A stretch of 64,000 nucleotides of DNA from Candidatus Kapaibacterium sp. Lineage in GTDB: Bacteria; Bacteroidota; Ignavibacteria; Kapaibacteriales; UBA2268. A program made the position numbers and the translations under genes. The notes beneath the pieces were generated by a model. The model had not been told where the DNA came from and ran no database searches. It worked only from the letters and a program-made list of their open reading frames with translations. Of the stretch, positions 21,915-39,917 are shown piece after piece (position 1 is the first letter of the stretch; each line of letters starts with the position of its first letter). Where the stretch lies: positions 2,272,001-2,336,000 of the forward strand of contig OY762428.1 in the NCBI GenBank assembly GCA_963665665.1, read 5' to 3'.

Positions 21915-24212
21915 ATGAAAATTACAAAATATATTCTGATATTTATTACCCTACAGGTTATTCCATTGTCTGCTCAGAACTGGGAATATTTTGAGCGCCG
22001 TGTGGAATATTACATGAACGAGAATAATATTCCCGAAGCATACAATTGGGCTATGCAGCAACTTCAGTTTACTCTTGAAAAGCACGGTACTGAAAGCGGC
22101 TACTATCGCCGTACTGCCGGACTGCTTATGGAAATTCACTTTGCTGCCGGAAATATTGATTCCTGCCTTTACTATGCAAAAATCGACAGTTCACTTCAAA
22201 TTAAGCATGGAAAGCCAAACAGGGGAGACAGCTACAGAAAAACCCTGGCATACATGGGGTTCGCTTACCAGGCAAAAAAGCAATTCGGGCTAGCGGAAAA
22301 TGTACTGCTCGAAGCTTATGAAAACTGTACCGAATATCATGCATTCAACGATTACGAATGCCTGGATATTAAAACTTTTATAGCCGATATGTACCTTCAG
22401 TCCGGTAATTTTGGAAAAGCACAATATTATATTACCGAGCTTAAGAATATCAGGGAACGCGATAAAAAAAGCAACCCGATTGCATTTGCAAGGATATTGA
22501 TTAAATATTCCTCCCTGATGATGGAAACCGGAAATTTTAATGCGGCAGACAGCCTGACCGATTTAAGCCTGACTATTTACAAGAAAAACGGCCCTGATAC
22601 TTTGCTGGATTATCCCGCAGCAATTGAATTTAAAGCACAACTTGCCTTCAGGAAAGGTAATTTGTTTGAAGTAAACAAAATAATGAAAAAATACATAGAA
22701 GCCTCAAAATTGGTTTACGGCATAAGTGAAACATTTTTCGGCTCAGTAAATATTTATTCTGAACTACTTCAGAATATCAGGTTTTATACCAACGGGGTTT
22801 TCTTACTTGAAAATGCTCTGCGTGAATTAGAAGAAGCAAATCTGAACAGCCTTTCTTTAAGAAAAACTACCGCTATATTTCAGGAAAAAGCTGGCAAAAA
22901 ATCCGAATCTCTGAAAAATATGCAGGAAGTTTACCAGCAGGAAAGTTCTTCAGCAACAGGAGTGCCGCTTACAACTATTGCCAGCGATGCAAATACCCTG
23001 GCCATGATGAATGCTGATGCCGGTAAGTATGGCATTGCCGGGCAACTGTTTAATAATGCCCAACTGATGTTCACTAATGTATACGGAGATAACAGTCCGA
23101 GCCATGCTATTGTACTGCAAAACAAAGCTTCGGTACTGGCAATGGAAGGAAATTATCCCGGAGCGATAAGCTCTATCGATAAAGCCATGAATATACTGAG
23201 GAAAGATACAAACCGCTACCTTCAGTTTATGCTGGCCCTTAAAACAAAAGCTGAAATCCAAAGGAAATCCGGCGATATTGAAGCTGCCTCTAATTCACTC
23301 GACACTGTGGTTATGAACCTTGGGGGACTTATGCCTGGCCATCCCTACTATCCTGTGTTTCTTAATGCCTACGCAGATTATGCCGAGGTGAATATAATAC
23401 GCGGAAACAGTAAAATTGTATATAGCAGGCTGCAGAATATTGCTAATGAGGCTGATTCTGTTTATTATCAAAACAATCCCAATATATTAAAACTAAGGCT
23501 GCTTATGGCCCTGGCCGGGCTGGAATCCGGGATTAAAAGTTCCGCCTTCAATAACATCTGGGAGGATGCTGAACATTATTATATATATGATTACCCCTTC
23601 CTTGATTACAAAGCACGGAAATCATTCCGGGAGCTTGCCGTGTTCATCGGCAGCAGGCTGGCAGGAAAGAATCGATTCAGATTTGATAACGGATTAACTG
23701 ATTTTCTAATAGCCGGTATTAGTTCAAATTACAAACTGCATCCGTCAATGCTGTTCAATACCGACAGCCTGAGAAATAAAAGCATATTGGATATTTCAGA
23801 AGCCGGAGAACTGAAAATGCTTCTTCTTGGAGGATTCAAAACCAAGGATAATAACCCTTTTTTATACCCTGATTCCGTGGATAAAATAAAAATGGAAAGA
23901 GCGGAAAAACTGAAAGACAGCAAATTATATTATGAAATATTTCCTCAGGCCAAAATAATTAGTTACGCCAATAAAATGATTATTACAGCATCTGATGATA
24001 ATGTGCTAATTATTCTTAAAAAATCAGAAAAGATCAGCTCTCATCATTTTAGCATGAAAGATTTTAAAAATCCGAAATCGGGCGAATGGAAAAAGATCAA
24101 CAAAGCATTGAAAGGAATTGACAGAATAGTTGTTATTTCAACCGATAGTAAGCTGAGCAAGGCTGCCAATAGTAATATCCCTGAATCAGTAAAAGTAATA
24201 TGCGAAAAATAA
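21915..24212 (+). CDS. Secreted TPR-repeat protein, possibly with a truncated CHAT domain
   Basis: Signal peptide and kinesin-light-chain-like TPRs; C-terminal WKKINKALKGIDRIVVISTD. Confidence 0.6.
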   Translation: MKITKYILIFITLQVIPLSAQNWEYFERRVEYYMNENNIPEAYNWAMQQLQFTLEKHGTESGYYRRTAGLLMEIHFAAGNIDSCLYYAKIDSSLQIKHGKPNRGDSYRKTLAYMGFAYQAKKQFGLAENVLLEAYENCTEYHAFNDYECLDIKTFIADMYLQSGNFGKAQYYITELKNIRERDKKSNPIAFARILIKYSSLMMETGNFNAADSLTDLSLTIYKKNGPDTLLDYPAAIEFKAQLAFRKGNLFEVNKIMKKYIEASKLVYGISETFFGSVNIYSELLQNIRFYTNGVFLLENALRELEEANLNSLSLRKTTAIFQEKAGKKSESLKNMQEVYQQESSSATGVPLTTIASDANTLAMMNADAGKYGIAGQLFNNAQLMFTNVYGDNSPSHAIVLQNKASVLAMEGNYPGAISSIDKAMNILRKDTNRYLQFMLALKTKAEIQRKSGDIEAASNSLDTVVMNLGGLMPGHPYYPVFLNAYADYAEVNIIRGNSKIVYSRLQNIANEADSVYYQNNPNILKLRLLMALAGLESGIKSSAFNNIWEDAEHYYIYDYPFLDYKARKSFRELAVFIGSRLAGKNRFRFDNGLTDFLIAGISSNYKLHPSMLFNTDSLRNKSILDISEAGELKMLLLGGFKTKDNNPFLYPDSVDKIKMERAEKLKDSKLYYEIFPQAKIISYANKMIITASDDNVLIILKKSEKISSHHFSMKDFKNPKSGEWKKINKALKGIDRIVVISTDSKLSKAANSNIPESVKVICEK

Positions 24213-24583
24213 ATTGAATTAAGATATCTTAATTGTAAAAAAAATGATTGCTGATAACTTGCGGGATAAGCGGTATACTTGCTGAACTTTTCCGCTACCA
24301 TCCGGATGACAATATCAGCACAGGCGTTTATTTCCTTCATTTCATTGATTCCGAAGGAAACGTTATTTCTCAGAAGATTGTATGGGAGTGATAGGTATTA
24401 TAAGAGCGAAATTTCCATATATCTAATCACCAATTCATATAATTTTTAAAAACTAAAATATTATGAAAATAATTTCGACTTTAAGCAAAATTCCGGTTTT
24501 AATTTTTACAAACCGTAAAGTTTCATATTTTTGTACGAGAGTAAATTTTGATAATTTTTTTAACTTTTTCAGGAATATTGGTT

Positions 24584-24907
24584 ATGGCGCAACCATTACA
24601 TTTAACAGACGACATGTTCGAAAACGAAGTAATTAAATCGGATGTTCCGGTAGTAATAGATTTCTGGGCAACATGGTGCGGCCCCTGCCGTATGATTGCT
24701 CCGATTATCGAGGAAATGGCAAATGAATTCGAAGGTAAAGCAAAGATATGTAAGCTTGATGTTGACAATAACCAGCAGACAGCTATGCAGTTCGGCATTC
24801 GTTCTATCCCCACAGTTCTTATCTTCAAGAACGGCGAAGTAGTAGAATCTATCGTCGGGGCAGTGCCAAAACAGCAGATTGTCAGCAAGCTTGAAGCCCA
24901 CATGTAA
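24584..24907 (+). CDS. trxA: Thioredoxin
   Basis: WCGPC active site; ATG at 24584 gives a canonical 107-aa protein. Confidence 0.95.
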   Translation: MAQPLHLTDDMFENEVIKSDVPVVIDFWATWCGPCRMIAPIIEEMANEFEGKAKICKLDVDNNQQTAMQFGIRSIPTVLIFKNGEVVESIVGAVPKQQIVSKLEAHM

Positions 24908-24917
24908 TAAAATTTTA

Positions 24918-24944
24918 AGGCGGATTCAATTCCGCCTGTTTTTT
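24918..24944 (+). terminator. Intrinsic terminator after trxA
   Basis: AGGCGGA-ttcaat-TCCGCCT followed by a T-tract. Confidence 0.6.
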
Positions 24945-24967
24945 GTTTATTAAATTGCGAGGTCAAA

Positions 24968-25261
24968 ATGCAGCGTCCGGAATTACTCCCGGAAGAAGAA
25001 ATTAATTCTCATCTGATTTCCCGCCCGCTCTGGAAACATGAGGATAACCTTATATACAGGGACTTCGCCCTTGCCAATTTCACAGCCTGCATGGGCCTGG
25101 CAAATTCCGTAGCCATCCTTGCCGAAAAAATGGATCATCACCCGGAAATCAGGCTTTATGCCTGGAATAAAATCCGTTTTACCCTGATGACCCACGACAA
25201 AGGCGGTCTTACATCTCTTGATTTCCAACTGGCAAAGCAGATTGACGAGCTTGGTTTTTGA
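24968..25261 (+). CDS. Pterin-4-alpha-carbinolamine dehydratase
   Basis: AEKMDHHPEI and THDKGGLTSLDFQLA motifs. Confidence 0.9.
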   Translation: MQRPELLPEEEINSHLISRPLWKHEDNLIYRDFALANFTACMGLANSVAILAEKMDHHPEIRLYAWNKIRFTLMTHDKGGLTSLDFQLAKQIDELGF

Positions 25262-25449
25262 TTCTTTGAAAACAAAGTTAAAAATGCTCTTTCGGATATC
25301 TTATCCGAAAGGAGAACAGGATTGGGAAATCCTCTCCCTATTGTACGTAGGGACAGGGATTCACCGACGAGCTATGTAGGTTAAAATCTTTATCGTTCTT
25401 TAAAAATTTATAGCAGATCCTTATGACGATAAACCATAAGCTACAATGC

Positions 25450-25540
25450 TGTCACTCTGAGCGAAGCGAAGAGTCCATTCTTCTGCAATGTTTGATTGAA
25501 AATATGGATTCTTCAGTCGATGCGCTCTTTCAGAATGACA
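25450..25540. repeat. REP-like palindromic element, copy 2 (inverted relative to copy 1)
   Basis: TGTCACTCTGAGCGAAGCGAAGAGTCC...GGATTCTTCAGTCGATGCGCTCTTTCAGAATGACA. Confidence 0.8.
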
Positions 25541-25660
25541 CTTTCGGATTTTTTCTCAAAAAATTGCTATAAATTTTCAATGCTGAGTAGGTACAAAAAA
25601 TAGAAAAGTTTTTTTATATAATAATTCAGATATTTCCATTTTAATATTTTATTCAATTGA

Positions 25661-26953
<1,293 letters not shown>

Positions 26954-27042
26954 AATATATTTGTAAATATACAATTATACCTTTATCCCCTCTTTTTTTT
27001 AAGGAGGGGAATTTTTTATTCAATTTTCCGATATAAATAACA

Positions 27043-27813
27043 TTAGAAATTATTCTCAACATCAAATGAACTAACCAGGAAACCCGGGTTCAGCAGTGAT
27101 TCTTTGTTGTAGATAAAACGTCTGCCACCGTTCTCAACCATACCGCCAGCTGCTTCCACAACACCCTGGCCTGCAGCAGTGTCCCATTCCATGGTAGGCC
27201 CTCCCCGGAAATACAGATGGGCTTTGCCCTCGGCCACCATACAGAATTTCAGTGAGCTGCCCCTGGAAATTGACTCAACAACATTAAATTTCGCAAGGAA
27301 TTCCTTTTCTGCTTCGCCGGCATGGGAACGTGACTGAACGGCGATTATTCCTTCGCCTGTGTTCTGATTAACTTTTATCTCTTCCTTAACTCCTTTGGTT
27401 ATTTTAAAAGCACCTTCTCCTTTTGTTCCAATATAAATATCATCCAATACTGGCGCTGATACTATACCAAATACCGGGTAACCGTCTTCTATCAGGGCAA
27501 TATTCACAGTAAATTCGCCGTTACGTTTTATAAATTCCTTTGTTCCGTCCAGAGGGTCAACCAGAAAGAAGCGTCTCCAATTCTTACGGTTTTCGTAGGG
27601 AATTTCCTTCTCTTCCTCTGAAATAATTGGAATATCCGGGTAGAATTCTCTTAAAGATTCAGTAATAACCTTATTTGAAGCTTTGTCGGCTTTTGTAAGC
27701 GGAGAGTTATCCGATTTCATCTCAACTCCGAAATCATCAGTATGGTAAATATCCATAATAGCTTTTCCGGCTTCAATAACTATCTCAATCATTTTATCAT
27801 TGTCAATCAGCAT
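27043..27813 (-). CDS. cysQ: 3'(2'),5'-bisphosphate nucleotidase CysQ
   Basis: SPLTKAD, DPLDGTKEFIKRNGEFTVNIAL, GSSLKFC and EWDTAAG motifs. Confidence 0.92.
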   Translation of the reverse strand: MLIDNDKMIEIVIEAGKAIMDIYHTDDFGVEMKSDNSPLTKADKASNKVITESLREFYPDIPIISEEEKEIPYENRKNWRRFFLVDPLDGTKEFIKRNGEFTVNIALIEDGYPVFGIVSAPVLDDIYIGTKGEGAFKITKGVKEEIKVNQNTGEGIIAVQSRSHAGEAEKEFLAKFNVVESISRGSSLKFCMVAEGKAHLYFRGGPTMEWDTAAGQGVVEAAGGMVENGGRRFIYNKESLLNPGFLVSSFDVENNF

Positions 27814-27999
27814 TTTTCATTTCCATTATTAATAAAGAACAAAATTAAACAATAAGAAACACTTTTATCGATCTTTATCATAAGAATTTTACCTTATCCG
27901 GCAGAAACAGTATTTTTTTAACTTTGTGAAAACTTAAAAAAATTTTATTTTTATAATGGATAATTTATATAATTATTTAATCATACAGGGAGAAACCAA

Positions 28000-28677
28000 A
28001 TGCTGAAAGTTACATACCTTAGCCACTCTGCTTTTATGCTTGACGACGGAGAGAACAAAGTTCTGATCGATCCGTTTATTACCGGAAACCCGGTTGCTCC
28101 GGTACAAGCCGATAACATTGATGCCGAATTTATTGTGCTTACTCATGGACATGGCGACCACCTTGGGGACGGGTTTGATATTGCTAAAAGAAATAACGGA
28201 ACGATAATAGCTGTAAACGAACTTGCTAATTTTGCTGCCGAAAATGGTATTAACGCACATAACATGCATATAGGCGGCGCATATAATTTTCCTTTTGGCA
28301 GGGTAAAGTTTACAATTGCTCATCATGGTTCTGCCAATAACGAAGGACGTTATATGGGCCCCGCATCAGGTGTGGTTATAACTATGGGCGGAAAAACTAT
28401 TTATCATGCCGGCGACACCGGACTATTCCTTGATATGAAACTTATCGGCGAACTTGATAAAATTGACCTTTTCATGGCTCCCATTGGCGATAACTTTACA
28501 ATGGGTATTGATGATGCCGTAAAGGCCACAGAATTTGTGAATCCCGGAATGGCTGTACCTATACATTACAATACATTCCCTGTTATTCCTGCTGATCCTG
28601 AAGAGTTTAAAAGGAAAGTGGAATCTATAGGCAAAAAATGCAAAGTGATGGAATTTGGCGAAACAATAGAGTTGTAA
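28000..28677 (+). CDS. UPF0173 metal-dependent hydrolase (metallo-beta-lactamase fold)
   Basis: THGHGDHLGD, YHAGDT, PIGDNFTM and PIHYNTF motifs. Confidence 0.9.
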   Translation: MLKVTYLSHSAFMLDDGENKVLIDPFITGNPVAPVQADNIDAEFIVLTHGHGDHLGDGFDIAKRNNGTIIAVNELANFAAENGINAHNMHIGGAYNFPFGRVKFTIAHHGSANNEGRYMGPASGVVITMGGKTIYHAGDTGLFLDMKLIGELDKIDLFMAPIGDNFTMGIDDAVKATEFVNPGMAVPIHYNTFPVIPADPEEFKRKVESIGKKCKVMEFGETIEL

Positions 28678-28719
28678 ATAATTTAATAATTTCTTCTTGT
28701 TTGAAAATTATGAAAAGCG

Positions 28720-28827
28720 GTCATTCTGATGGAACGAAGCGACCGAAGAATCCATACTATAATATTTTGGCCAGGAATAATATAAACTCGCAGGAATACT
28801 GGATTCTTCGCTTCGCTCAAAATGACA
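28720..28827. repeat. REP-like palindromic element, copy 3
   Basis: GTCATTCTGATGGAACGAAGCGACCGAAGAATCCA...TGGATTCTTCGCTTCGCTCAAAATGACA. Confidence 0.8.
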
Positions 28828-28932
28828 GATGTAAATTAAATGTTGAGTAATACATTTTTTAAATATTATAACAAAAAATGTCCGGCTTATTCAAAATATA
28901 AACCGGACATTATATTATTTAATTTTTAGATA

Positions 28933-29658
28933 TTATTCAGCCTGGTGAACGTCGCCGCTGCCTTTTATATCAACATAAACATTCTGCGGTTTTCCGGTAT
29001 AATAAACATCTCCGCTACCGTAGATTTTAACGCTCAGGTCTTCCTTAACATTCAGCCTGCAATTACCTGAACCATATATTTCTATATCAGATATTTTCGT
29101 TGTAAAGTCGGTTAATTTAAAATCACCTGACCCTTTAATTTCAAATTTTGTTTTTTCGGCTTTGCCCTTAACTGATATATCACCTGAGCCAAGAATTTCG
29201 CCTTTCAATTTCTCAGATTCAATCTCCATAGCAATATCACCTGACCCTTTGATAACCAGGGCAATAAGATCTGTTTTTATTGGCGTTTCTCCTACAATAT
29301 CACCGGATCCCTTGATCATAATGCCTTCATAATCAGGAGATGTAACGTAAACATCAAATCTTGAAGGGCAAATTGAACCAACGGAAGAAATAATAAGTGT
29401 ACTACCGGAAACCTCTGTTGTTACCTGTTCGATAATATTATCATCGGTAACAACTTTTACTTTAGTTTCATTTCCCTGGCTTACAAAAATATTTGAAGAA
29501 CCTTTAAGGACAATTTTATTAAATTGGTTCACATCCCTGTATTCTTCAACAATTTTCTCGGAACCCTGAACACAGTTAAGGCAGGTATTGAAACATGAAG
29601 TCATTGTGAATGAAAGAATTAAAGCTGATATTATAATAACTGGTTTGAAAATTTTCAT
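28933..29658 (-). CDS. DUF2807 (head GIN domain) lipoprotein
   Basis: Lipobox MTSC and repeated I-x-GSGD motifs; start placed at MKIFKP. Confidence 0.85.
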   Translation of the reverse strand: MKIFKPVIIISALILSFTMTSCFNTCLNCVQGSEKIVEEYRDVNQFNKIVLKGSSNIFVSQGNETKVKVVTDDNIIEQVTTEVSGSTLIISSVGSICPSRFDVYVTSPDYEGIMIKGSGDIVGETPIKTDLIALVIKGSGDIAMEIESEKLKGEILGSGDISVKGKAEKTKFEIKGSGDFKLTDFTTKISDIEIYGSGNCRLNVKEDLSVKIYGSGDVYYTGKPQNVYVDIKGSGDVHQAE

Positions 29659-29775
29659 ATAAAAACTCCGATTTTTGATATTATCCATCATTTTCATTAC
29701 GCAAAATATCTTATAAAGTTTCGTAATATTTTAATAAGTTGAAATATTAAAATTATAGCAGGAATTGAATAAGTA

Positions 29776-31338
29776 ATGACAAATAATGTTATCAATCTGA
29801 AGAAAAAGATAAAAGATTTTAAAACCGAAGGAATCAAATTTTCCGTATCAGGCAGGGAAATTCTGCCATATTATGATATAATTGATTTTCTAAAAATATA
29901 TTATCCGTTTATTAATTTGAAACAGATAGAAAGTTCATTTGGCAGTACATATATACCCTCTGATTTGTATGGCGGAAGGAAGTATAACCCTGAAAAATCA
30001 TTTACTGACGGGCATATTGCAAAATTGGCTGAGAATAATATTAACTTATCTTTAACACTTACCAATCATTACTTTTCTCCGGATATTTACGAAAAAAGTA
30101 AATATTTACTTGAGAAATACCATAAAGCCGGCAATTCAGTAATATGTGTAAATGATGAACTTGCAAAACAGATAAGGATTGATTTCCCGAAATATCAGCT
30201 CAGGGCAAGTATTATTAAAAATATAAATACTTTGAAAAAAGTTGAGGAAAATCTGGAAATATATGATTTTATTGTGATACCCATGGATAAAAATGACGAT
30301 GATGAATTTTTGAAAAGCCTGCCGGAAAAGAAAAAAATTATGCTTTTTGCCAATGCATCATGCGCTTATTCATGCCCGACAAGAACCTGCTATAAAGGAT
30401 TTTCGGAGGTAAATAGAGGTGGCGATCAGGTAAATCTTTGCTCAAGAAATAAAGTTGACAGATTGAACATGGGGCTTGTATTTTTTGATGTGCTGAAATT
30501 CAGGGATATGGGATTTGATTATTTTAAACTTGTTCCTTTGAAACAATATAAAACTAATGATGTAATAAAATTTTACAGCGAAAAAAGACTAAAACAAAAA
30601 ATTAATTTTAATGAAAAAAACATGTTTTATTTGTGTTCATTCCCAAAATCCGGGAGGACATGGCTGCGCTTTATACTGGCAAATTATATTAATCTATATT
30701 TTAAAACCGACGAAAAAATTAACCTTAACAATATGTTTGAATTCATTCCTAATAATATTTACGGAGGGCAAAAAGGTTTTGCCAGATTCAGATATTATAA
30801 CAGGCCGGAAATACCACTAATTTTATCTACCCATGAGAAATACAATCCGAATATTTTCAGTGAAAAAAGAATAATATTTTTAAAAAGGAACCCTTTGGAT
30901 ACGATAGTATCATACTATTTTCATATTAAAAATGATCCGGGATATCGGGGAAATATAAGCGAATTTATAAGAGATAAAAAATTTGGTATCAGGTATCTGA
31001 AAAGATACTATAAATTATGGGAAAAAAATCTGAATAATGAAAGTCTTATTATAAGCTATGAGGATATGATAGATGATATTGAATCTGTTATCATCAATGT
31101 TTTGAATTTTATTAATATTCAGGTTGATAATGAAATATTGAAGGAATCAATTAACAATTCTGATATTAATAATATGAGAAATTCAGAAAATCTGGTTAAA
31201 ATCCCTGACATGAATGAAAGTGCCGTCAGGGTAAGAAAAGGAAAGACAAATAATTACATGAATTATTTGTCTGAAGAGGATATTAAATATTGTAATGATA
31301 TTTTAGATGTAAAATTACATAAACTATTGGAAAAATAG
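29776..31338 (+). CDS. Fusion of a Cys-rich U32-like domain and a PAPS-dependent sulfotransferase
   Basis: C-terminal half has CSFPKSGRTW (5'-PSB), RNPLDTIVSYY (3'-PB), YED and VRKG. N-terminal half has GGR, LTLTN, ASII and NASCAYSCPTRTCY...C, which resemble U32-like TIM-barrel proteins (less certain). Confidence 0.7.
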   Translation: MTNNVINLKKKIKDFKTEGIKFSVSGREILPYYDIIDFLKIYYPFINLKQIESSFGSTYIPSDLYGGRKYNPEKSFTDGHIAKLAENNINLSLTLTNHYFSPDIYEKSKYLLEKYHKAGNSVICVNDELAKQIRIDFPKYQLRASIIKNINTLKKVEENLEIYDFIVIPMDKNDDDEFLKSLPEKKKIMLFANASCAYSCPTRTCYKGFSEVNRGGDQVNLCSRNKVDRLNMGLVFFDVLKFRDMGFDYFKLVPLKQYKTNDVIKFYSEKRLKQKINFNEKNMFYLCSFPKSGRTWLRFILANYINLYFKTDEKINLNNMFEFIPNNIYGGQKGFARFRYYNRPEIPLILSTHEKYNPNIFSEKRIIFLKRNPLDTIVSYYFHIKNDPGYRGNISEFIRDKKFGIRYLKRYYKLWEKNLNNESLIISYEDMIDDIESVIINVLNFINIQVDNEILKESINNSDINNMRNSENLVKIPDMNESAVRVRKGKTNNYMNYLSEEDIKYCNDILDVKLHKLLEK

Positions 31339-31350
31339 TTATTATGATAT

Positions 31351-31476
31351 CTAAGAAGTATGATAAGTATCGCTTTCGCCATCAGTTTCAGGTGGTGAAG
31401 AAATATTTCCATCAGTATCGCTTGAATCAAAATCAATTACCTGTGGCTTTTTCCATTCTTTTTTATTGTCTTTCAT
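31351..31476 (-). CDS. Lasso peptide precursor (41 aa; absent from the ORF track)
   Basis: MKDNKKEWKKPQVIDFDSSDTD|GNISSPPETDGESDTYHTS*. It has a WxxP leader motif, Thr at -2, Gly1, Glu8 and a C-terminal Ser, and lies 70 bp downstream of the cyclase on the same strand. Confidence 0.9.
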   Translation of the reverse strand: MKDNKKEWKKPQVIDFDSSDTDGNISSPPETDGESDTYHTS

Positions 31477-31546
31477 AATCAATTCTTTTTTTTTAAATAT
31501 ATATCAACTTAATCTGGATATAATATACTTAATTGTACAGTTAAAT

Positions 31547-33496
31547 TCAAATTTCTATTTGTTCAATAAATTTAATAGTAGCTATAGTATGCAGAATCAG
31601 CTTTGTTGTTTTTGAAAACAGATCCTGAGTATATTTCTCTGATTTTATATTCTCAAGAGTTTCTGATATTTTATTCTTATCGAATCGAATAATTCCATCA
31701 TTGCTATATGTATTAATAACTTTTTCAGTCCTGTTCATATCCAGTAAAACGCGATATGAAAGATCCTTTGCCTGCTTGCCGCGTTTGGTATTGCTAAGAA
31801 CTTTTTCGGGCAATTTTCCTTTCATAGCGCTTCTGATGAGATAACGTCCGATACCTTCGTGTTTGAATAATCCAGCAGGTATTTGTTTTGTAAATTCGCT
31901 AACGCGCCTATCGTTTGTGGCATCCCTGGTTTCAATTTTATTTATTAAATTATAATCAATATTACTATTAGATCCTGTATTGGATATATGTTTTTCAAGT
32001 ACTTTCCTGTTTTCGAAATTATTCAATTTATTATTTCTGTATTTAATAGCAGATTTGGCTTTTAACTGGTTCAGATGTTTATCTATTAATTCGAATCTGT
32101 TCAGCGTTTCTTCGCAAAATGGAATCAGGTGATCCCTGCCAAGAGATTCATGTAATTTTTTCGGGAAAAGACCTGAAAGCTTTGTTTTAGTTATTTTGCG
32201 AATACTTCCTAAAGATGTTGTAAACAACGATTTATTTGTATGCCGGGATTCAGACTTCCATTCTGAAAATAATTCTATCAATTTATATTGTCTCAGCAGA
32301 TCATGATAAAGGCCTGCGCCTGTTCTGGAAATTGTTAAATTACCGGCCTGGCCGTTAAGAAGCACATTAACATTATCCCCGGCTGCAAGCTGCAATATCC
32401 GCCAATGCCAGAAGCCGTTTTGAAAGTTAGAAGTGAATAGTTTGTTATATTTCAAGTCAATATCTATCGCGTCAATAGGGTAGAAATCCTTAGCGTTAAC
32501 AAAGTTGTGAGCAATATCATCGGGATACATATCCAGGATGGATTGAACATAAGGGGTTTCATCAGAAATCGACTTGATTTTCGGGCATTTATCAGGGTAA
32601 GCCGGAACAGAAGAATAGGAATATATCTTTTTCCCTTTTTTTCTTAGTTGATCAATTGCCAGTACAGTTGAAGAACTTGAATCCAGGCCTCCGCTCAGGT
32701 TAGAGCCTGTCCTTCCTTTTGTGCTAATTCTTTTAGATACAGCGTCGCTGTATATATCAAGAAAATGTTCAATATAATCATCGTTATTTTTATAATTGAT
32801 CGGAGATAAATTTTCCGGTTTCCACCAGCGTTCTTTTTTTTCTAATCCTGAAGAAGAGAAAATATAATTGTGGAATCTATTAATATTGAAAATATTTGTA
32901 TAAAATGTATCCTCATCGCCGGATTTAACCTGAAATGGCAGCATTCTGCAAATAAGATGTTCATAATTGACTTCGGGAGTAAAATCCGGTAGTTTAAAAA
33001 ATGCTGTTATTGTTGAAGAAAAGTAAATTGCTTTCGATGTTTCATAATAATACAATGGATAAATGCCGCTATGCCCTGATAATATAATTATTTTCCTGTC
33101 CTGTTTGTCCCAAATCAGCGGCATTAAATCACCAAAGATATGATTGTTTGTATCAAATTCCCATTTTTCGAAAGCATGAAGATAAAGACTGATATCGGAC
33201 AATTTATCTATATCTGTTTTTCCGGCAAGGCCCAAAGAATTTATTAGATCATCCCTGTTGTCAATCCTCATTCTCCCGGCGCCGATATACCTCCCGGACG
33301 GAGATTTAACAGGTTGTTCTTCTATCGGATTTTCAGTAAGTATGTCAATGTTCATCTGCACGAGAGCAAAGTTCCCGTCAGTAAAATAGTTATAGCTGTC
33401 GTATTGAACATCATCATAAGCAGATCTCATTTTTTCCAGTATATCAATATCAGCCGGGCTGATATCCTTATTAAAAAAAGCAATTGTGATAGTCAT
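31547..33496 (-). CDS. Lasso peptide cyclase (asparagine-synthetase-like, C protein)
   Basis: LSGGLDSS ATP-binding motif, RIDNRDDL, LNGQAGN, DRRVSEF and RYLIRSAMKGKLP; lacks the N-terminal Cys of AsnB; adjacent to B1/B2. Confidence 0.9.
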   Translation of the reverse strand: MTITIAFFNKDISPADIDILEKMRSAYDDVQYDSYNYFTDGNFALVQMNIDILTENPIEEQPVKSPSGRYIGAGRMRIDNRDDLINSLGLAGKTDIDKLSDISLYLHAFEKWEFDTNNHIFGDLMPLIWDKQDRKIIILSGHSGIYPLYYYETSKAIYFSSTITAFFKLPDFTPEVNYEHLICRMLPFQVKSGDEDTFYTNIFNINRFHNYIFSSSGLEKKERWWKPENLSPINYKNNDDYIEHFLDIYSDAVSKRISTKGRTGSNLSGGLDSSSSTVLAIDQLRKKGKKIYSYSSVPAYPDKCPKIKSISDETPYVQSILDMYPDDIAHNFVNAKDFYPIDAIDIDLKYNKLFTSNFQNGFWHWRILQLAAGDNVNVLLNGQAGNLTISRTGAGLYHDLLRQYKLIELFSEWKSESRHTNKSLFTTSLGSIRKITKTKLSGLFPKKLHESLGRDHLIPFCEETLNRFELIDKHLNQLKAKSAIKYRNNKLNNFENRKVLEKHISNTGSNSNIDYNLINKIETRDATNDRRVSEFTKQIPAGLFKHEGIGRYLIRSAMKGKLPEKVLSNTKRGKQAKDLSYRVLLDMNRTEKVINTYSNDGIIRFDKNKISETLENIKSEKYTQDLFSKTTKLILHTIATIKFIEQIEI

Positions 33497-33501
33497 ATTT
33501 A

Positions 33502-33948
33502 TCAGCTAAAGTATTCTACAACGGTGAATTGCCTCATGCCCTCGCGTCCGGTAACAATTCTGTTGCCGGAGCGGAGCCATGCATGAGCTTTCATTTTTTG
33601 ATCATTATCTTTCGCCACGCCAAAGTAGATGGTTGATTTTATTTTTCTTCTGCCAAGCATCCATTTTACGGTTAATGCTTTGTCATAGCATTTGGATTCC
33701 CAGGGAGATTCACGAAAGGCGCGATTTGCCGCCCTGTTTACTTTCATAATAATATTCTTTTCCTGAGCATTTAATTCCATTTTTTCGCTTTCTTTCCTTT
33801 TCTTTCCAATAAGGAAGGAATAGTATCTCATAGGCAGCAAAAGAATAATTACTCTGGCAAAAGCATCATTTATAAGGGCTTCGATAAATAGTAATTTATC
33901 TTCAAAAAGGAAGCCGTAGAAATTCCTTATTTTCCTAAAAATTTTCAG
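33502..33948 (-). CDS. Lasso peptide leader peptidase (B2, transglutaminase-like)
   Basis: PWESKCYDKAL (catalytic Cys) and AHAWLRSG (His). The frame stays open up to a CTG at 33948, adding a typical B2 N-terminus (KLLFIEAL...ARVIILLLP). Confidence 0.88.
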   Translation of the reverse strand: MKIFRKIRNFYGFLFEDKLLFIEALINDAFARVIILLLPMRYYSFLIGKKRKESEKMELNAQEKNIIMKVNRAANRAFRESPWESKCYDKALTVKWMLGRRKIKSTIYFGVAKDNDQKMKAHAWLRSGNRIVTGREGMRQFTVVEYFS

Positions 33949-34226
33949 GACTTCACATCAATAAGTTTCATTTTTACGAGTTTTTCCAGAAATTCCGTTG
34001 TGTCTTTTTCGCATACTTCCCTGTCGATATTATATTCTTCGAGTAGTTTATTTACCAGGTCGCCAAAGCTTATTTCATTTTCAATTTTTGCCCATATTAC
34101 TGATCCAATCTCGTCGAAACCATAGTATTTGCTGGTTTCTACGCTCATCATTACAGTCTGGTTGTCAATCTCGCTGCTGATAAAATCATCTTTCCTGATG
34201 ATTATTGTATTGCCTGTTATTTCCAT
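33945..34226 (-). CDS. PqqD-family RiPP recognition element (lasso B1)
   Basis: IDNQTVMM...KYYGFDEIGSVIW...LLEEY..DREVCEKD..EFL; 93 aa. Confidence 0.92.
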   Translation of the reverse strand: MEITGNTIIIRKDDFISSEIDNQTVMMSVETSKYYGFDEIGSVIWAKIENEISFGDLVNKLLEEYNIDREVCEKDTTEFLEKLVKMKLIDVKS

Positions 34227-34258
34227 GATATTTATCTATATGTTAATAAATGATAAAA

Positions 34259-34308
34259 TTCTTTACATAAGGAACGAACTCTGATAAGAAAACACGATTT
34301 TCTTTACA
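34259..34308. repeat. Direct repeat, left flank of fic
   Basis: 50 bp identical to 35453-35502; contains the 32-bp unit AACTCTGATAAGAAAACACGATTTTCTTTACA (34277-34308). Confidence 0.95.
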
Positions 34309-34319
34309 AAGAATAAAAA

Positions 34320-35381
34320 CTATCCGATTTTCAATAATTCCATCAATTTTTCATTGACATAATAATTCCCTGTGCCAAGCCGGTGTTTTGTCAGCAGGCC
34401 GTCATTTGCCATCTCGTTTAAATATTTTGCGGCGGTTATTCTTGATACTCCTAGATCTGTTTCAAGGAATTCAATTTTCGTATAAGGATGTTTGAATAAA
34501 TTGTTCAGTAAATCCTGGCTGTAGAATTTATATTTTGAACGTATAATATTTTTATATTCAAATATCAATTCCCGGATATTTTTTATTAATACTATTGTTT
34601 CCAGGGAAGTTTGTTCAACACATTCAAGGATATAAATCAGCCAGTTTTCAAAAATATTGCTTTGCCTGACATCCTGTAACAGATTGTAATAATGTTCTTT
34701 GTTTAATATAATATATCTGCTATGGTACAAGATCGGTAATTTTAATAGGTCTTTCAGAACAAGATATAACACATTCAATATTCTTCCTGTTCTGCCATTT
34801 CCATCATAAAACGGATGAATGCTTTCGAATTGATAATGTATTATTGCCATTTTTACCAAAGGATCCAAATCAGAAATCGAATCGTCATTGATGAAGAGTT
34901 CAAGATTTGACATAAGCTCAAGAATTTCATTCGGATCCTGGGGCGGAGTATAAACTATGTCTCCACTTGTATCATTTTTCAGCACAGTTCCCGGTACTTT
35001 CCTGAAACCGGCAGAATTTTTTTCAAGTTCCTCCTGAATTTCAAGAATGGTATTTCTTGTTATCATCCCGCTTTCAGAAACCAGGGCAAAACCTTTCTTA
35101 AGCGCCGAACCGTAGTTTTGAACTTCTTTTGCGTTAAGGGAATCAAAACCGTCAAGATTCAGTTCGGATTTATACAGGTCATCGTGTGTTGTGATGATAT
35201 TTTCTATTGCCGAACTGTCTTTTGCTTCCTGAAGCCCCAGAGTATTTATTAAAATATTCTCATTGGGAATTGTTGTTGAAATACCTTTCAATTCGGCGAG
35301 CGCTCTGTGAGCAGAAGAAAGTTTTTTGAGAACTTTTACAGTCTCCAGTTCTACTTTATTATATGGTAATTTCTGTATCAT
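34320..35381 (-). CDS. Fic-family protein (class II-like, with C-terminal HTH)
   Basis: HPFYDGNGRTGR Fic motif; SSAIEN inhibitory motif; LGVSRITAAKYL HTH. Start at ATG 35381 (MIQKLP); the track's extension lies inside the repeats. Confidence 0.92.
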   Translation of the reverse strand: MIQKLPYNKVELETVKVLKKLSSAHRALAELKGISTTIPNENILINTLGLQEAKDSSAIENIITTHDDLYKSELNLDGFDSLNAKEVQNYGSALKKGFALVSESGMITRNTILEIQEELEKNSAGFRKVPGTVLKNDTSGDIVYTPPQDPNEILELMSNLELFINDDSISDLDPLVKMAIIHYQFESIHPFYDGNGRTGRILNVLYLVLKDLLKLPILYHSRYIILNKEHYYNLLQDVRQSNIFENWLIYILECVEQTSLETIVLIKNIRELIFEYKNIIRSKYKFYSQDLLNNLFKHPYTKIEFLETDLGVSRITAAKYLNEMANDGLLTKHRLGTGNYYVNEKLMELLKIG

Positions 35382-35388
35382 AATTTCA

Positions 35389-35502
35389 AACTCTGATAAG
35401 AAAACACGATTTTCTTTACAAAGATACAAAACTCTGATAAGAAAACACGATTTTCTTTACATAAGGAACGAACTCTGATAAGAAAACACGATTTTCTTTA
35501 CA
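35389..35502. repeat. Three tandem 32-bp units with 41-bp period, right flank of fic
   Basis: Units at 35389-35420, 35430-35461 and 35471-35502, separated by 9-nt linkers AAGATACAA and TAAGGAACG; internal dyad AAGAAAA-cacga-TTTTCTT. Confidence 0.95.
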
Positions 35503-35505
35503 TAG

Positions 35506-36375
35506 TTAAACCAGAATATCTCCATTTTCAGAAAGGTATCCATATTTTTTCATTATTTCCGAATGGTTTGCGATTATTGATTCAACCATAGCATCGTTCA
35601 GCTGATTTCGCCAGGCGCCCTTTTTGCCTTTGCGGAAGAAGGATTCGGATTTTGGATTCTTTTCCTTAAAGCCGTGCTCTTTTTCCATTTCTTTTAATTT
35701 GTCAAATGTGCTTAGTCCAACTGCTTTTGAAATTTGCCCGTGCGTGTAATCGAAATCTGTAAATTCCAAAGCCCGTGTGAATTCTTTTACAGGATCGTCC
35801 TTCATATCTTCATATCTCAAAATAATAACCGGAATTTTATCCTGCTCAGTCCAGCTTCTGATATGCAGGCTCCATGACAGGAGTTTTTGCCTAAGCTGGT
35901 TATGAAGAGTACCGTCGTTGGTACAAAAAGCGAAATTCTCGTTGTTCATATCCAGGATACTTTTATGAATCGGTTTATTTGAATGATGTGCAAAGGAACA
36001 GGCTACATCAAAAGGATTCCTTATAATATATACAGCTGAATGGCTAATTTCTTCCGGGAACATTGGCCGCCCGTCAGGTAGAAGTGTATAAGCGTCATGC
36101 GTTTTCAGGAATCGTTTGTCTTCTTCAAATTCATCGGCAAGGTGTTTGTATATATCCGGCCTTGCCAGGTCAATCTCATCCATTGTCAGATCGGAAGCGG
36201 CAGTTCCGGCCAGATCGTCAAATGTATCCCGGCTGCTGGAAATAGGGCCTCCAGTCAGGTTATTTATATCTGCCGGTTCAGAATAACCCATTACAAGATT
36301 TGTGAAAAATACTCTGAACCATGTGTTACCTGATTTTGGGTAGGAGGCAAGCCAGATTATTTTTTTATTTTCCAC
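35506..36375 (-). CDS. PAPS-dependent sulfotransferase (lasso cluster)
   Basis: WLASYPKSGNTW, KTHD, RNPFDVACS, RYEDM and FFRKGKKG motifs; overlaps the kinase gene end. Confidence 0.92.
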   Translation of the reverse strand: MENKKIIWLASYPKSGNTWFRVFFTNLVMGYSEPADINNLTGGPISSSRDTFDDLAGTAASDLTMDEIDLARPDIYKHLADEFEEDKRFLKTHDAYTLLPDGRPMFPEEISHSAVYIIRNPFDVACSFAHHSNKPIHKSILDMNNENFAFCTNDGTLHNQLRQKLLSWSLHIRSWTEQDKIPVIILRYEDMKDDPVKEFTRALEFTDFDYTHGQISKAVGLSTFDKLKEMEKEHGFKEKNPKSESFFRKGKKGAWRNQLNDAMVESIIANHSEIMKKYGYLSENGDILV

Positions 36376-37279
36376 TATTAGCCTCCAAATCTTTTAGTAT
36401 TGCGTCAACAATCATTGCAGGATCCGATTTCATCCTAATCCTGTTAAGTTTTCGTATAAAGATATCTTTGGAGTTTGCTATTTGTGTTAAAAAGATAAAA
36501 TGTTTGTCCGGCTGTCCGGTTCTTTGAACAAATCTTTTACGGTATGTTGAATTTCTTAGAAATTTGATTTTCTTAATTGAATCAATTTCTGATATTTCAA
36601 TATCTTCAAAAGGCCCCGGCTTTATAAAATATATTCCCATTACCGGCCTTGATTTTTCAATATCGTGTATTGATATTGGAATTCTGAATTTTTCCTGTTC
36701 TTCTCTTATCTTTTCGATATTTGAATAATCTGTTTTCAGCATTTTCAGGCTGTCATTCCAAAGTTTAATCTCTGAATGTCCGGGAATTATTGATATAATC
36801 CCATCGTCGTCTATAGTTAATAATGAAGTATCGTCACAAAGCAGGCCGTATCCTCTTTTTACAAATTCAGCGGCAATGGTGGATTTTCCGGCGCCTGATT
36901 TCCCTGAGAAAAGTAATGCCCTGCCATCGATTTCCACTGCGCTGGCATGGAGGGCGAATATTCCGCGCTGATGCGCCAGGGCCCCGAGAACTGATCCGAA
37001 AAGGAATACTTTTAACTCGGATTCCGAAGTATCGGGATTAAGGTCAACAGTAATAGTCCTGCCGTCTTCAACAAGGAATCTTCCCACGCTTTCTAAGTTA
37101 AATAGAAATTTGCCCGGGGCTGCGGAATATAAAGGATAGACCTGTGCATTTCCGTTCAATTTTTCAGGTACGTCACCTTTGCGGATTATAACATCGCTTT
37201 CTTTTTCTGTTTCCGGAAGTCCGGAAAACTCGAATTCCGAGTCAAATACAAAACCGTATGCGTAATATTTTTTTCTCAT
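36365..37279 (-). CDS. HPr-kinase-like lasso peptide kinase
   Basis: YYAYG, LHASAV, GKSGAGKST P-loop, LCDD and IKLW: the signature set of paeninodin-type (PadeK-like) kinases. Confidence 0.88.
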   Translation of the reverse strand: MRKKYYAYGFVFDSEFEFSGLPETEKESDVIIRKGDVPEKLNGNAQVYPLYSAAPGKFLFNLESVGRFLVEDGRTITVDLNPDTSESELKVFLFGSVLGALAHQRGIFALHASAVEIDGRALLFSGKSGAGKSTIAAEFVKRGYGLLCDDTSLLTIDDDGIISIIPGHSEIKLWNDSLKMLKTDYSNIEKIREEQEKFRIPISIHDIEKSRPVMGIYFIKPGPFEDIEISEIDSIKKIKFLRNSTYRKRFVQRTGQPDKHFIFLTQIANSKDIFIRKLNRIRMKSDPAMIVDAILKDLEANSGK

Positions 37280-37285
37280 AGTATA

Positions 37286-38308
37286 TTATTTGGTTTTAAT
37301 TTTTAAATAATCAAAAACTATATAAAATGGAATTAAAGGATAATTTAGGTATCTGAATATTCCGGGAAATTTAATTTTTGATATATATGATATAGAATAA
37401 AAAGATCCAAAAAATATTTTCAATTTAAAAAAAATGGATCTTTTCAATTTCATTTTATAAATAATAGAATCAACAATACTATTAAAAGTCTTGATATCAT
37501 AGGGAATCAGTATTCTTTTTACACAGAAATCACTTAATTTTCCATGAAACTCTATATTATCATTCAACTTAATTTTGTGATTATAAATATACGATAAAAG
37601 ATTTAATAAAGGGAAGTAAAGGCGTTCTAAATGATATCTTTCCGCAAGTTTCCCTGCTGCAAAAAACAAATCAGGACGATTCATGTATATAAAATGTATA
37701 TCCCGAAGCCAAAATAGACGATTCCAGAAATGTATTCCTCCATGAATAATCAAAAAAAGAATATTTTCTGTTGATAAGGAGCTATAATCTACATAAATTT
37801 TAGATAGGTCATATTCAGTGTTAACATTTTTGGGAATCCAATTATGTTTAAATAATTTCCAATGAAGTTCAATTAAAATATTGGTTTTTGAACTAACAAA
37901 TTTCATCTGATTATTTCTGCGAAATAATTCATTAAAATTCTCTTTGTTGTAATCACTATAATCCTTATAAATTTTAATATTGTTCTCAGTTAAAACTTGT
38001 ATAGCTTTATTGATATTTTTAAATTCAATCAGGATATCAATATCTCTGCTCATCCTATCCGCCGGATCTGAGTATAGAAGCCCGGTTATTCCCGGCCCTT
38101 TCAGGTTTCTGAATTTAATTCCATTAATTTCAAGAATTTTGGAAATTCGTTTCAATTCAGTATTGATAACAAGCATTTTCCGGGTTTCTATTTTAATCAG
38201 GCTATCTATTTGTGTCAATATTGACTCGCTGAGATACGAACTATATAATTTCAATTTTCTAAGTGCAGGAAGAAGCAGGCGATGCCTTCTGCCAAGCTTT
38301 ACAAACAT
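37286..38308 (-). CDS. Nucleotidyltransferase (NTP_transf_5-like); true start probably upstream
   Basis: LKG, LY..P..R.S.DIDILI, IELHW and RLFWLRDI motifs. The frame stays open upstream (...FLEKGFDWQMFVKLGRRHRL). Confidence 0.85.
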   Translation of the reverse strand: MFVKLGRRHRLLLPALRKLKLYSSYLSESILTQIDSLIKIETRKMLVINTELKRISKILEINGIKFRNLKGPGITGLLYSDPADRMSRDIDILIEFKNINKAIQVLTENNIKIYKDYSDYNKENFNELFRRNNQMKFVSSKTNILIELHWKLFKHNWIPKNVNTEYDLSKIYVDYSSLSTENILFLIIHGGIHFWNRLFWLRDIHFIYMNRPDLFFAAGKLAERYHLERLYFPLLNLLSYIYNHKIKLNDNIEFHGKLSDFCVKRILIPYDIKTFNSIVDSIIYKMKLKRSIFFKLKIFFGSFYSISYISKIKFPGIFRYLNYPLIPFYIVFDYLKIKTK

Positions 38309-38459
38309 CTGCCAGTCGAAACCTTTTTCAAGAAAATTGATAATAATATCTTCACGATAAGCTTCCGGGTGTTTTGTCAGCTCGATTAGTAAGATAAGTT
38401 CCTTATTTGCATCATCTGTAAAAATTTTGATATACCTGTATATTATAGTTATAATATTA

Positions 38460-38497
38460 CAAATATAATAAATACAATGTTACGCATAACAAATATA
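38460..38497 (-). promoter_or_regulatory. Putative -7 promoter elements for the lasso operon
   Basis: TATATTTG on the minus strand at 38460-38467 and 38490-38497. The same TAnnTTTG motif precedes trxA (24526), cysQ (27840), the hydrolase (27919), serS (38609), mnmE (48978) and atpD (63740). Confidence 0.5.
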
Positions 38498-38657
38498 AGA
38501 TTGAGTTTATTCCGAAGTGAAAATTAGCTGATAAATATATTCATTGCCTTCTGTTATACAAAACCGGGCAATTATCAAATATTTCTAAGCTATATCGTGA
38601 AGATTAACTAATTTTGTATAAATATAGTTAATTGTTTTAAATAATATGGTTGTGATA

Positions 38658-39917
38658 ATGCTGGATTTGAAATTCATCAGGGAAAATGCCGAAAAGGTTA
38701 TAACTAATACCCACAATAAGAACGAAAAAGCAGATATTGATACAATTCTTGCCACCGACCTGAAAAGAAGAGAAATTATTCAGGAAGTTGACGAACTGAA
38801 AAACAAACGTAACGTTGTATCAAAAGAAATTGCAATGCTAAAAAAAAATAAAGAAGATGCAACTGAAAAAATTAGTAGTATGAAAGAAGTATCCGAAAGA
38901 ATCAAAGCGTTGGACGAGGAAATGCGCCACGTTGAGGAATACCTGAAGGATAAACTAATGCGTGTTCCAAATATGCTTCATGAATCTGTTCCTGTTGGTA
39001 AAAGTGAAAACGACAATATTGAAATAAGATCGTGGGGCGAGAAAAATGCAGATATTGATACCGACCATATAGAAATAGCAAAAAGGCTTGGCATTATAGA
39101 TTTTGAAAGAGGCGCTAAAGTTACAGGATCAGGATTTGCTTTTTATGTTGGTAAAGGCGCCGCCCTGGAAAGAGCCTTAATAAATTTCATGCTGGATCTG
39201 CATATAAACAAACACGGCTACACAGAAATTATACCTCCCTTTGTTGTAAACAGGGAGTCAATGAACGGTACAGGACAGCTTCCCAAGATGGAAGAGGACA
39301 TGTACCATGCAACAGAAGACGATGTATTTTTAATTCCTACATCCGAAGTTCCGCTGACAAATTTTCATGCCGGGGATATGATTAAACCAGAAGAACTGAC
39401 TAAAAAATTCTGTGCATATTCTCCATGCTTCAGGCGCGAGGCAGGATCGTACGGAAAAGAAGTACACGGGTTCCTGCGAGTACATCAGTTTAATAAAGTA
39501 GAAATGGTGAAATTCACCAAACCCGAGGATTCCTGGAATGAATTAGAAGCTCTTACGAATGATGCTGAAGAAGTACTAAAAGAACTTGGCTTACCGTACA
39601 GGGTGCTTTTACTTTGTTCAGGTGATACCAGTTTTGGAAGCGCAAAAACTTATGACCTTGAAGTATGGACTCCGGGCGAGAAAAAATGGCTTGAAGTATC
39701 AAGCTGTTCCAACTTTGAATCTTTCCAGGCAAGACGGGCAAACATAAGATTCAAACCTGATCCTAAATCAAAACCGGAATTTGTTCATACTCTGAATGGC
39801 AGCGGAGTAGCTACTTCAAGAATAATGGTTGCTATACTTGAGAACAATCTTCAGGAAGACGGCAGGGTGGAAATACCTGATGTGTTGAAAAAATATTGTG
39901 GTTTTGATTTTATATAA
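38658..39917 (+). CDS. serS: Serine--tRNA ligase
   Basis: MLDLKFIREN, GTGQLPK, PTSEVPL, CFRREAGS, EVSSCSN and HTLNGSG motifs. Confidence 0.97.
   Translation: MLDLKFIRENAEKVITNTHNKNEKADIDTILATDLKRREIIQEVDELKNKRNVVSKEIAMLKKNKEDATEKISSMKEVSERIKALDEEMRHVEEYLKDKLMRVPNMLHESVPVGKSENDNIEIRSWGEKNADIDTDHIEIAKRLGIIDFERGAKVTGSGFAFYVGKGAALERALINFMLDLHINKHGYTEIIPPFVVNRESMNGTGQLPKMEEDMYHATEDDVFLIPTSEVPLTNFHAGDMIKPEELTKKFCAYSPCFRREAGSYGKEVHGFLRVHQFNKVEMVKFTKPEDSWNELEALTNDAEEVLKELGLPYRVLLLCSGDTSFGSAKTYDLEVWTPGEKKWLEVSSCSNFESFQARRANIRFKPDPKSKPEFVHTLNGSGVATSRIMVAILENNLQEDGRVEIPDVLKKYCGFDFI

Follow-up and report, generated by a model that had tools for sequence, protein, structure and literature searches.

Within a 64,000-nucleotide stretch of the genome of Candidatus Kapaibacterium sp. 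(contig OY762428.1, positions 2,272,001 to 2,336,000; hereafter the window), a single gene fuses a domain resembling the U32 protein superfamily to a sulfotransferase domain and lies beside a gene cluster for a lasso peptide, a peptide made on the ribosome and modified after its translation (RiPP). The identities of both domains are almost certain, and the fused gene very probably belongs to the lasso pathway. Regarding its function, we propose, by analogy with characterised U32 proteins, that the product combines an O2-independent hydroxylase with a sulfotransferase and tailors the lasso peptide, a reading that in our judgement is evenly balanced between being right and being wrong.

Domains of the fused protein

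The C-terminal domain is readily placed. Residues 285-516 match the Pfam family Sulfotransfer_1 (PF00685; E 4e-26, 92.4 bits against a cut-off of 22), in agreement with the first-pass annotation of this DNA, which had read sulfotransferase motifs in the C-terminal part of the open reading frame (ORF). All 45 sequence matches of the fused protein in the Protein Data Bank (PDB) fall within residues 254-516, the best being 1aqu (E 7e-14), and the best PDB matches of the sulfotransferase domain are estrogen and phenol sulfotransferases (E 1e-14 to 1e-20). In the 46 fused homologues that were aligned, S288, P290, K291, G293, R294, T295, W296, H353, R371, S379, R487 and G489 either do not vary or are retained in at least 90% of the sequences; we take S288-W296 to be the loop that binds 3'-phosphoadenosine 5'-phosphosulfate (PAPS) and H353 to be the catalytic histidine. 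Judged from these matches, the domain belongs with the cytosolic sulfotransferases of the phenol/steroid type, which depend on PAPS. An adenosine 5'-phosphosulfate (APS) kinase is encoded in the genome, and PAPS can therefore be made. Only four PF00685 matches occur in the 5.46 Mb of this genome, two of them within the lasso cluster.

The N-terminal domain belongs to a family that no Pfam or NCBIfam model names. Residues 1-278 have no Pfam match at E up to 10, no NCBIfam match and no PDB sequence match by phmmer, and two family profiles run against PDB sequences returned nothing meaningful. A word-indexed search with residues 1-280 retrieved 43 proteins (E 2e-101 to 7e-57), 35 of which carry PF00685, the other eight being about 290-330 amino acids (aa) long with no Pfam domain. 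An HMMER scan of 1.84 billion cluster representatives returned 362 at E up to 0.001, including 97 at E up to 1e-30, many of them standalone proteins of about 240-280 aa, so that the family comprises at least 362 protein clusters. Its most conserved feature is the motif N-x2-C-x3-C-P-x3-C with one later cysteine, which had been noticed from the translation alone and corresponds to C196, C200, C205 and C222. All four cysteines are invariant in a 44-row alignment of homologues and also in the 46 fused homologues; among 87 more distant, mostly standalone members, C200, C205, C222 and K251 do not vary and at least 90% keep C196. Because the pattern is conserved in the 44 homologues and in the 87 distant members, it is not a matter of chance, and by analogy with U32 proteins the site most likely carries a [4Fe-4S] cluster. 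The U32 motif CX6CX15CX3/4C binds such a cluster, as shown in UbiU and UbiV (PMC6747719). A radical S-adenosylmethionine (SAM) enzyme was also considered and rejected on our own inference that neither the cysteine spacing nor the late position of the site in the barrel fits.

The relationship to U32 emerges from structure and from profile comparison. The AlphaFold2 model of the N-terminal domain, built on the 44-row alignment, is a beta/alpha barrel (predicted local distance difference test, pLDDT, 90.9; predicted template modelling score, pTM, 0.89). In Foldseek against the PDB, the U32 protein Mk0906 (5d88) is the top match (E 3.3e-7, template modelling score 0.57/0.63), followed by a runner-up at 5.1e-5 and then by generic barrels. 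VIA-align over 48,161 representative chains likewise ranks 5d88 first (Z 15.9, 217/247 residues, root mean square deviation 4.0), with the second match at Z 11.5. The triosephosphate isomerase (TIM) barrel of U32 type anticipated in the first-pass annotation is thus what modelling and Foldseek give. A glycoside hydrolase was rejected as the identity of the domain, the generic barrel matches reaching only Z 9-11, far under the U32 match. In hhalign, the 87 standalone family members compared with 21 canonical PF01136 proteins drawn from genomes in the window's own phylum yield a score of 37.3 (E 3e-4) over 181 collinear columns, whereas a reversed family profile scores 16.0 and the maximum of 20 column shuffles is 20.1. 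Eight pairs of conserved residues are identical (family/U32: R68/R41, S145/S119, F191/F176, C196/C182, C205/C189, C222/C205, G246/G250 and K251/K255), with C196, C205 and C222 aligning with U32 cysteines 1-3 at slightly longer than canonical spacing. The nearest ESM Atlas clusters are one named for the PrtC family (0.95) and another in which 16% of members match PF01136; the canonical U32 gene of the window's genome lies at another place. We therefore place the N-terminal domain outside PF01136, on a new and very divergent branch within the U32 superfamily. For the full-length enzyme, AlphaFold2 gives a pLDDT of 91.3 and a pTM of 0.81, and the model suggests that the two domains are held in a fixed arrangement.

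Association with kinase-type lasso clusters

A scan with one genome per species produced 76 related loci, which were searched by tblastn with the proteins of the window's cluster. In a tree of 70 N-terminal domains, from which six partial matches and one sequence with a stop codon were left out, two clades of 35 rows each are separated (support 98 in the Shimodaira-Hasegawa-like approximate likelihood ratio test, SH-aLRT), and all lasso-linked copies fall in one of them, that of the window. In the window's clade, lasso or kinase genes occur in the available flanks of 30 of the 35 rows and the sulfotransferase fusion in 19. The link to the lasso cluster, which the first-pass annotation had called tentative, is thereby strengthened: homologues, fused and unfused alike, adjoin lasso genes in these 30 loci, and fusions do co-occur with RiPP genes. 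Of the five exceptions, L009, L018 and L032 have flanks that are short on the side that matters, and L028 is placed on a branch that is long and unsure; the fifth, L033, a fused homologue with full flanks and no lasso genes within 10 kb, looks like a true exception. Six loci (L002, L010, L015, L019, L020 and L065) have the lasso kinase, a second, standalone sulfotransferase (ST2), the fused gene and the lasso cyclase arranged one after another on a single strand; in L065 a gene for the B1 recognition element comes between ST2 and the fused gene.

The hosts of the window's clade are spread over six phyla (Bacteroidota, Thermodesulfobacteriota, Acidobacteriota, Planctomycetota, Pseudomonadota and Campylobacterota), and one row, L030, carries a Myxococcota label. 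Because the clade does not track taxonomy, and because the fused gene is present in only one of 41 genomes related to that of the window, horizontal spread is indicated. Many of the hosts, and most of those that carry a lineage label, fall in groups that we take to be largely anaerobic or microaerophilic. Sampling in the reverse direction, with an ST2 profile against metagenomes, yielded 80 loci, of which 50 contain lasso or kinase genes; the U32-like domain was found at none of the 80, among them 10 that extend for 5 kb or more to either side. The module is therefore optional and accessory: it almost always occurs with kinase-type lasso clusters, yet most such clusters do without it.

A comparison of precursors offers a lead on the target of this module. 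Candidate precursors were collected with a regular expression requiring the W-x-x-P leader motif, a stop codon within 55 residues and Ser as the last residue. Clusters with the module gave candidates from 17 of 36 loci (24 distinct peptides), and Tyr is present among the five residues preceding the terminal Ser in 19 of the 24 peptides and in 16 of the 17 loci; lasso clusters without the module gave candidates from 15 of 50 loci, with Tyr in five of 15 peptides and five of 15 loci. This enrichment (Fisher p 0.007 by peptide and 0.0005 by locus, in a statistic that treats related clusters as independent and with an expression that keeps two or three likely false candidates, both of which detract from it) is a lead, not proof, and Tyr as the modification site is a tentative assignment, less likely than not. 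In the Bacteroidales loci, the small ORFs between ST2 and B1 include no precursor, and a wider leader expression gave candidates elsewhere in those loci.

Some lasso loci are more elaborate. Two or three different candidate precursors occur in L011, L016, L070 and L074, the last of which has two copies of the kinase-ST2-cyclase set, and in L012, L015 and L020 (Geobacter, Pelobacter and Acidobacteria) the kinase, ST2 and lasso genes are preceded by three tandem small genes annotated 'phage tail collar domain' and a GT41-TPR (tetratricopeptide repeat) gene. The family also occurs in other settings. In L040, L044, L050 and other Xanthomonadales-like loci, a standalone homologue lies 35-67 bp from a gene for a 670-aa TPR and Sulfotransfer_3 protein, with MTHFR-like, GcvT-like and TonB-receptor genes close by. 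In L063, L067, L068 and L069 (Syntrophaceae, Smithella), a standalone homologue precedes GNAT-like, TauE, CysD-like and CysN/APS-kinase genes, and upstream are a sulfotransferase, an ATP-grasp protein and a large GLUG-repeat protein, with no lasso genes. In Shewanella (L039, L046, L055, L057, L059 and L073) and Colwelliaceae, a standalone homologue is conserved at fixed chromosomal sites, after the nqr operon or near the hyp genes, with no sulfation or RiPP genes near; one may wonder whether these homologues modify RNA, as other U32 proteins do.

Proposed chemistry and its alternatives

By analogy with UbiU/UbiV, RlhA and TrhP, the U32-like domain would most likely hydroxylate an aromatic carbon without O2, and the fused sulfotransferase would then use PAPS to sulfate a hydroxyl on the same substrate. 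That substrate would most likely be the lasso precursor or peptide, and the preferred site the conserved Tyr that precedes the C-terminal Ser by 2-5 residues and would pass from Tyr to a catechol and then to an O-sulfate; which reaction comes first and which residue is modified are inferred. UbiU and UbiV hydroxylate a phenol ortho to its hydroxyl, as conversion of Tyr to 3,4-dihydroxyphenylalanine (DOPA) would require. The role proposed for U32 proteins is a prephenate-dependent hydroxylation of aromatic rings, in which the ring is oxidised and hydroxide is delivered from prephenate (PMC10990095). In its most specific form, the proposal is that Tyr is hydroxylated to a catechol, probably in a prephenate-dependent manner, and that sulfation of the new hydroxyl yields a DOPA-sulfate lasso peptide under anoxic conditions through a mobile module found in six phyla; this version is speculative and lies on the unlikely side.

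Several observations weigh against the hydroxylase-sulfotransferase reading. Neither the whole protein nor residues 1-278 match PF01136 at E up to 10, one of the 87 family members does so (E 0.0066), and the hhalign probability for the family against canonical U32 is only 40%. The fourth U32 cysteine stands opposite a gap, the family's own fourth being C200 inside the first loop, and the U32-invariant residues R144, E174, Q121 and E257-G258-R259 have no identical counterpart; because the site is divergent, the chemistry may differ from that of U32. The U32 assignment of the first-pass annotation accordingly stands with respect to the TIM barrel, the top structural match and the profile similarity, and falls short with respect to PF01136 membership and the place of the fourth cysteine. 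To our knowledge, action on a peptide has been demonstrated for no U32 protein, and the roles assigned to this large and little-understood family are limited to O2-independent hydroxylation of RNA bases and quinone rings, with no in vitro assay as yet. For RlhA and TrhP, direct hydroxylase activity is described as not yet demonstrated in vitro (PMC10990095). Moreover, the core peptide is already rich in Ser, Thr and Tyr hydroxyls open to direct sulfation, and because of these many hydroxyls, hydroxylation is not needed for sulfation. Within the non-lasso clade, counted over 40 loci, 29 have no sulfotransferase within 7 kb, seven have a TPR-sulfotransferase within that distance (35-67 bp away in three) and four more have another sulfotransferase (cluster c32). 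Sulfation genes near the family are nevertheless commoner than chance, though not always present, given the four PF00685 matches in the entire 5.46 Mb genome. A prediction of the complex of the full enzyme with the 41-aa precursor and a 4Fe-4S cluster gave an interface score (ipSAE) of 0.00 in both runs, which speaks neither for nor against binding.

The Bacteroidales loci also count among these adverse points, and they suggest a different substrate. There the domain is unfused and heads a run of alternating glycosyltransferase family 8 (GT8) and carbohydrate-type sulfotransferase genes, the latter unrelated to the fused sulfotransferase; in L013, L017, L022, L025, L026 and L027 the run (at about 10000-17500) continues with NTP_transf_5 and a Wzy_C-TPR gene beside lasso genes, and this variant looks like machinery for a sulfated glycan. 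By extension, the U32-like domain could act on a phosphoglycan built on the C-terminal Ser by the kinase and the nucleotidyltransferase, or on some other non-peptide, with the sulfotransferases sulfating the glycan. The window's cluster does contain a kinase and an NTP_transf_5 protein, characterised relatives of these two proteins make phospho-hexosyl lasso peptides (PMC8498205), and many second-rank fold matches, at Z 9-11, are glycoside-hydrolase barrels. However, Pfam detects no glycosyltransferase in the window's cluster, the fused sulfotransferase is phenol/steroid-like, unlike the carbohydrate type of Bacteroidales, and the residues shared with U32 together with the cysteine motif indicate chemistry of the U32 type and not that of a glycosidase, which leaves a glycan substrate unlikely. 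A simpler scheme keeps the peptide and removes the hydroxylation: the N-terminal domain would serve as a docking, regulatory or redox-sensing Fe-S module, while the sulfotransferase directly O-sulfates Tyr (or Ser/Thr) of the precursor. It is attractive in that Tyr already bears a hydroxyl and is found more often where the module is present, in that the sulfotransferase domain is nearest to phenol sulfotransferases, and in that several residues of the U32 catalytic region are not conserved. We nonetheless regard it as decidedly unlikely, since eight conserved positions are common with U32, including R68, S145 and K251 at barrel strand ends, and the presence of the domain alone in the 29 non-lasso loci suits an enzyme better than an adaptor.

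Two further explanations are highly improbable. The 'collagenase-like protease, PrtC family' label in the ESM Atlas and the title 'U32 peptidase' of 5d88 could be taken to mean that the domain is a peptidase of the 'U32 collagenase' kind that trims the precursor, but a B2 leader peptidase is already available in the cluster, a protease would have no obvious use for a fused sulfotransferase, and the characterised U32 proteins have been tied to Fe-S-dependent hydroxylation (PMC6747719, PMC10990095). It might also be argued that the fused gene is a mere neighbour of the lasso cluster that serves an unrelated sulfation pathway, since it converges on the cluster from the opposite strand, is present in a single one of the 41 related genomes and has in L033 a fused homologue away from lasso genes. 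Yet 30 of 35 clade members adjoin lasso or kinase genes, six of them in one apparent operon, four of the five exceptions (L009, L018, L032 and L028) do not count as clear negatives, and low GC content is common to the gene and the cluster; because the six loci show the one-strand order, the opposite orientation in the window is no argument against a shared pathway.

Literature searches outside subscription journals and supplementary material turned up neither a U32-like enzyme set in a RiPP or lasso cluster nor a sulfated lasso peptide that has been characterised. If the hydroxylase-sulfotransferase reading is true, the fused protein would be the first enzyme of the U32 superfamily with a peptide as its substrate, would extend the known tailoring of lasso peptides by anaerobic hydroxylation and by sulfation, and would help to account for the long-noted, uncharacterised sulfotransferases of kinase-type lasso clusters. 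For the U32 field, such a protein could be a tractable system, being soluble, having a small peptide substrate that is genetically encoded, and being joined to the enzyme that uses its product.

The window's cluster and comparison with known systems

Judged from its gene content (Table 1), the window's cluster is a lasso cluster of the paeninodin/pseudomycoidin (kinase) type. Its precursor ends in Ser and has a W-x-x-P leader motif, Thr at position -2 of the predicted cleavage site and, four residues before the end, a Tyr; the cleavage site and a ring between Gly1 and Glu8 are predicted from the sequence. W-x-x-P is the motif of paeninodin-like leaders (PMC13381572), and the C-terminal Ser is the phosphorylation target of lasso kinases (PMC8498205). 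ST2 shares 22% identity with the fused sulfotransferase domain and is conserved in related lasso loci. The Fic gene has no match in any of the 76 related genome loci and could either have been inserted or serve in tailoring or immunity in this cluster alone; its membership in the pathway is uncertain. No ABC exporter was found among the genes at 21915-24212, 24523-25261, 25676-29697 and 31351-48946, whereas one is present in 13 lasso-linked related loci.

Table 1. Features of the fused gene and of the adjoining lasso cluster, in window coordinates
Feature	Position	Strand	Basis
Fused gene, U32-like domain and sulfotransferase, 520 aa, ATG start	29776..31338	+	ORF and translation
U32-like TIM-barrel domain, residues 1-278 (N-terminal)	29776..30609	+	Model, structural match, hhalign
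Four-Cys motif C196-x3-C200-x4-C205-x16-C222	30361..30441	+	Predicted Fe-S (or metal) site
Sulfotransferase domain, residues 285-516	30628..31323	+	PF00685, solved cytosolic sulfotransferases
Lasso precursor, 41 aa from ATG	31351..31476	-	Translation
Lasso cyclase (C protein)	31547..33496	-	Asn_synthase, GATase_7; NF033535 E 9e-69, below cut-off
B2 leader peptidase, transglutaminase-like (Transglut_core3)	33502..33840	-	PF13471 E 3e-23
B1 recognition element, PqqD-like	33945..34226	-	PF05402 E 2e-17
Fic adenylyltransferase-like gene (SoFic-like), between ST2 and B1	34320..35429	-	Fic_N, Fic, SoFic-like_C; NF046030 E 2e-107, below cut-off
ST2, second standalone sulfotransferase	35506..36375	-	PF00685 E 8e-28
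HPr-kinase-like lasso kinase	36365..37279	-	PF07475 E 2e-8, 34.4 bits (cut-off 33.3); TIGR04352 E 1e-12, below cut-off
NTP_transf_5 nucleotidyltransferase	37286..38308	-	PF14907 E 5e-29, 101.9 bits

The fused gene ends with its stop codon at 31338 and the convergent precursor with its own at 31351-31353 on the minus strand, so that reading both stop codons reproduces the 12 bp reported earlier between them. The AT-richness likened in the first-pass annotation to that of the nucleotidyltransferase is also found: GC content is 0.26-0.33 over 29500-31499 (the region of the fused gene) and 0.26-0.30 over 37000-37999 (that of the nucleotidyltransferase), against 0.42-0.47 in the housekeeping genes upstream at 25000-27499. 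The genes flanking the lasso cluster are housekeeping genes. Searches for promoter-like sites found them no commoner than in shuffled sequence, no terminator-like site was found, and no tRNA gene is present within the window. The divergent neighbour of the fused gene is a DUF2807 gene of low GC content (28933-29697, minus strand). At 27043-27813 (minus strand), 2 kb upstream of the fused gene, lies a gene for CysQ, a 3'(2'),5'-bisphosphate nucleotidase (TIGR01331, 302 bits against a cut-off of 229). CysQ clears 3'-phosphoadenosine 5'-phosphate (PAP), the by-product of sulfotransferases; given its host-like GC content, the gene may be ordinary housekeeping.

Compared with paeninodin and pseudomycoidin clusters, that of the window has the same split B1/B2, cyclase, kinase, nucleotidyltransferase, W-x-x-P leader and terminal Ser (PMC8498205, PMC13381572) and differs in its two sulfotransferases, its Fic gene and the lack of an ABC exporter. 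The studied clusters of this type come from Bacillota and Proteobacteria and are without a U32-like domain, and a sulfotransferase in kinase-type lasso clusters is mentioned only as putative (PMC8498205, PMC4289311). SULT1/SULT2, StaL and Teg12/14 have the PF00685 fold and the PAPS-site residues in common with the fused sulfotransferase, which, unlike them, follows a U32-like barrel within a RiPP cluster. Hydroxylation of a lasso precursor has a counterpart in CanE, an Fe/2-oxoglutarate hydroxylase that tailors the linear precursor (PMC8498205); this analogy is one of function only, as CanE is O2-dependent, has an unrelated fold and acts without coupled sulfation.

With respect to U32 itself, the sole structure found is that of Mk0906 from Methanopyrus kandleri (5d88), a single-domain barrel of about 250 aa that is the best structural match of the N-terminal domain at 9-12% identity. 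By sequence, 5d88 was found neither by the canonical U32 profile nor by the family profile, and a literature search on Mk0906 gave unrelated matches only. UbiU/UbiV, RlhA and TrhP have in common with the N-terminal domain the TIM barrel, three aligned cysteines and shared Arg, Ser, Phe, Gly and Lys residues. In contrast to these proteins, the N-terminal domain is missed by PF01136, places its fourth cysteine elsewhere, lacks several U32-invariant residues and has a sulfotransferase in place of the U32 C-terminal domain. They act on RNA or on a quinone precursor, whereas the presumed substrate of the fused enzyme is a peptide.

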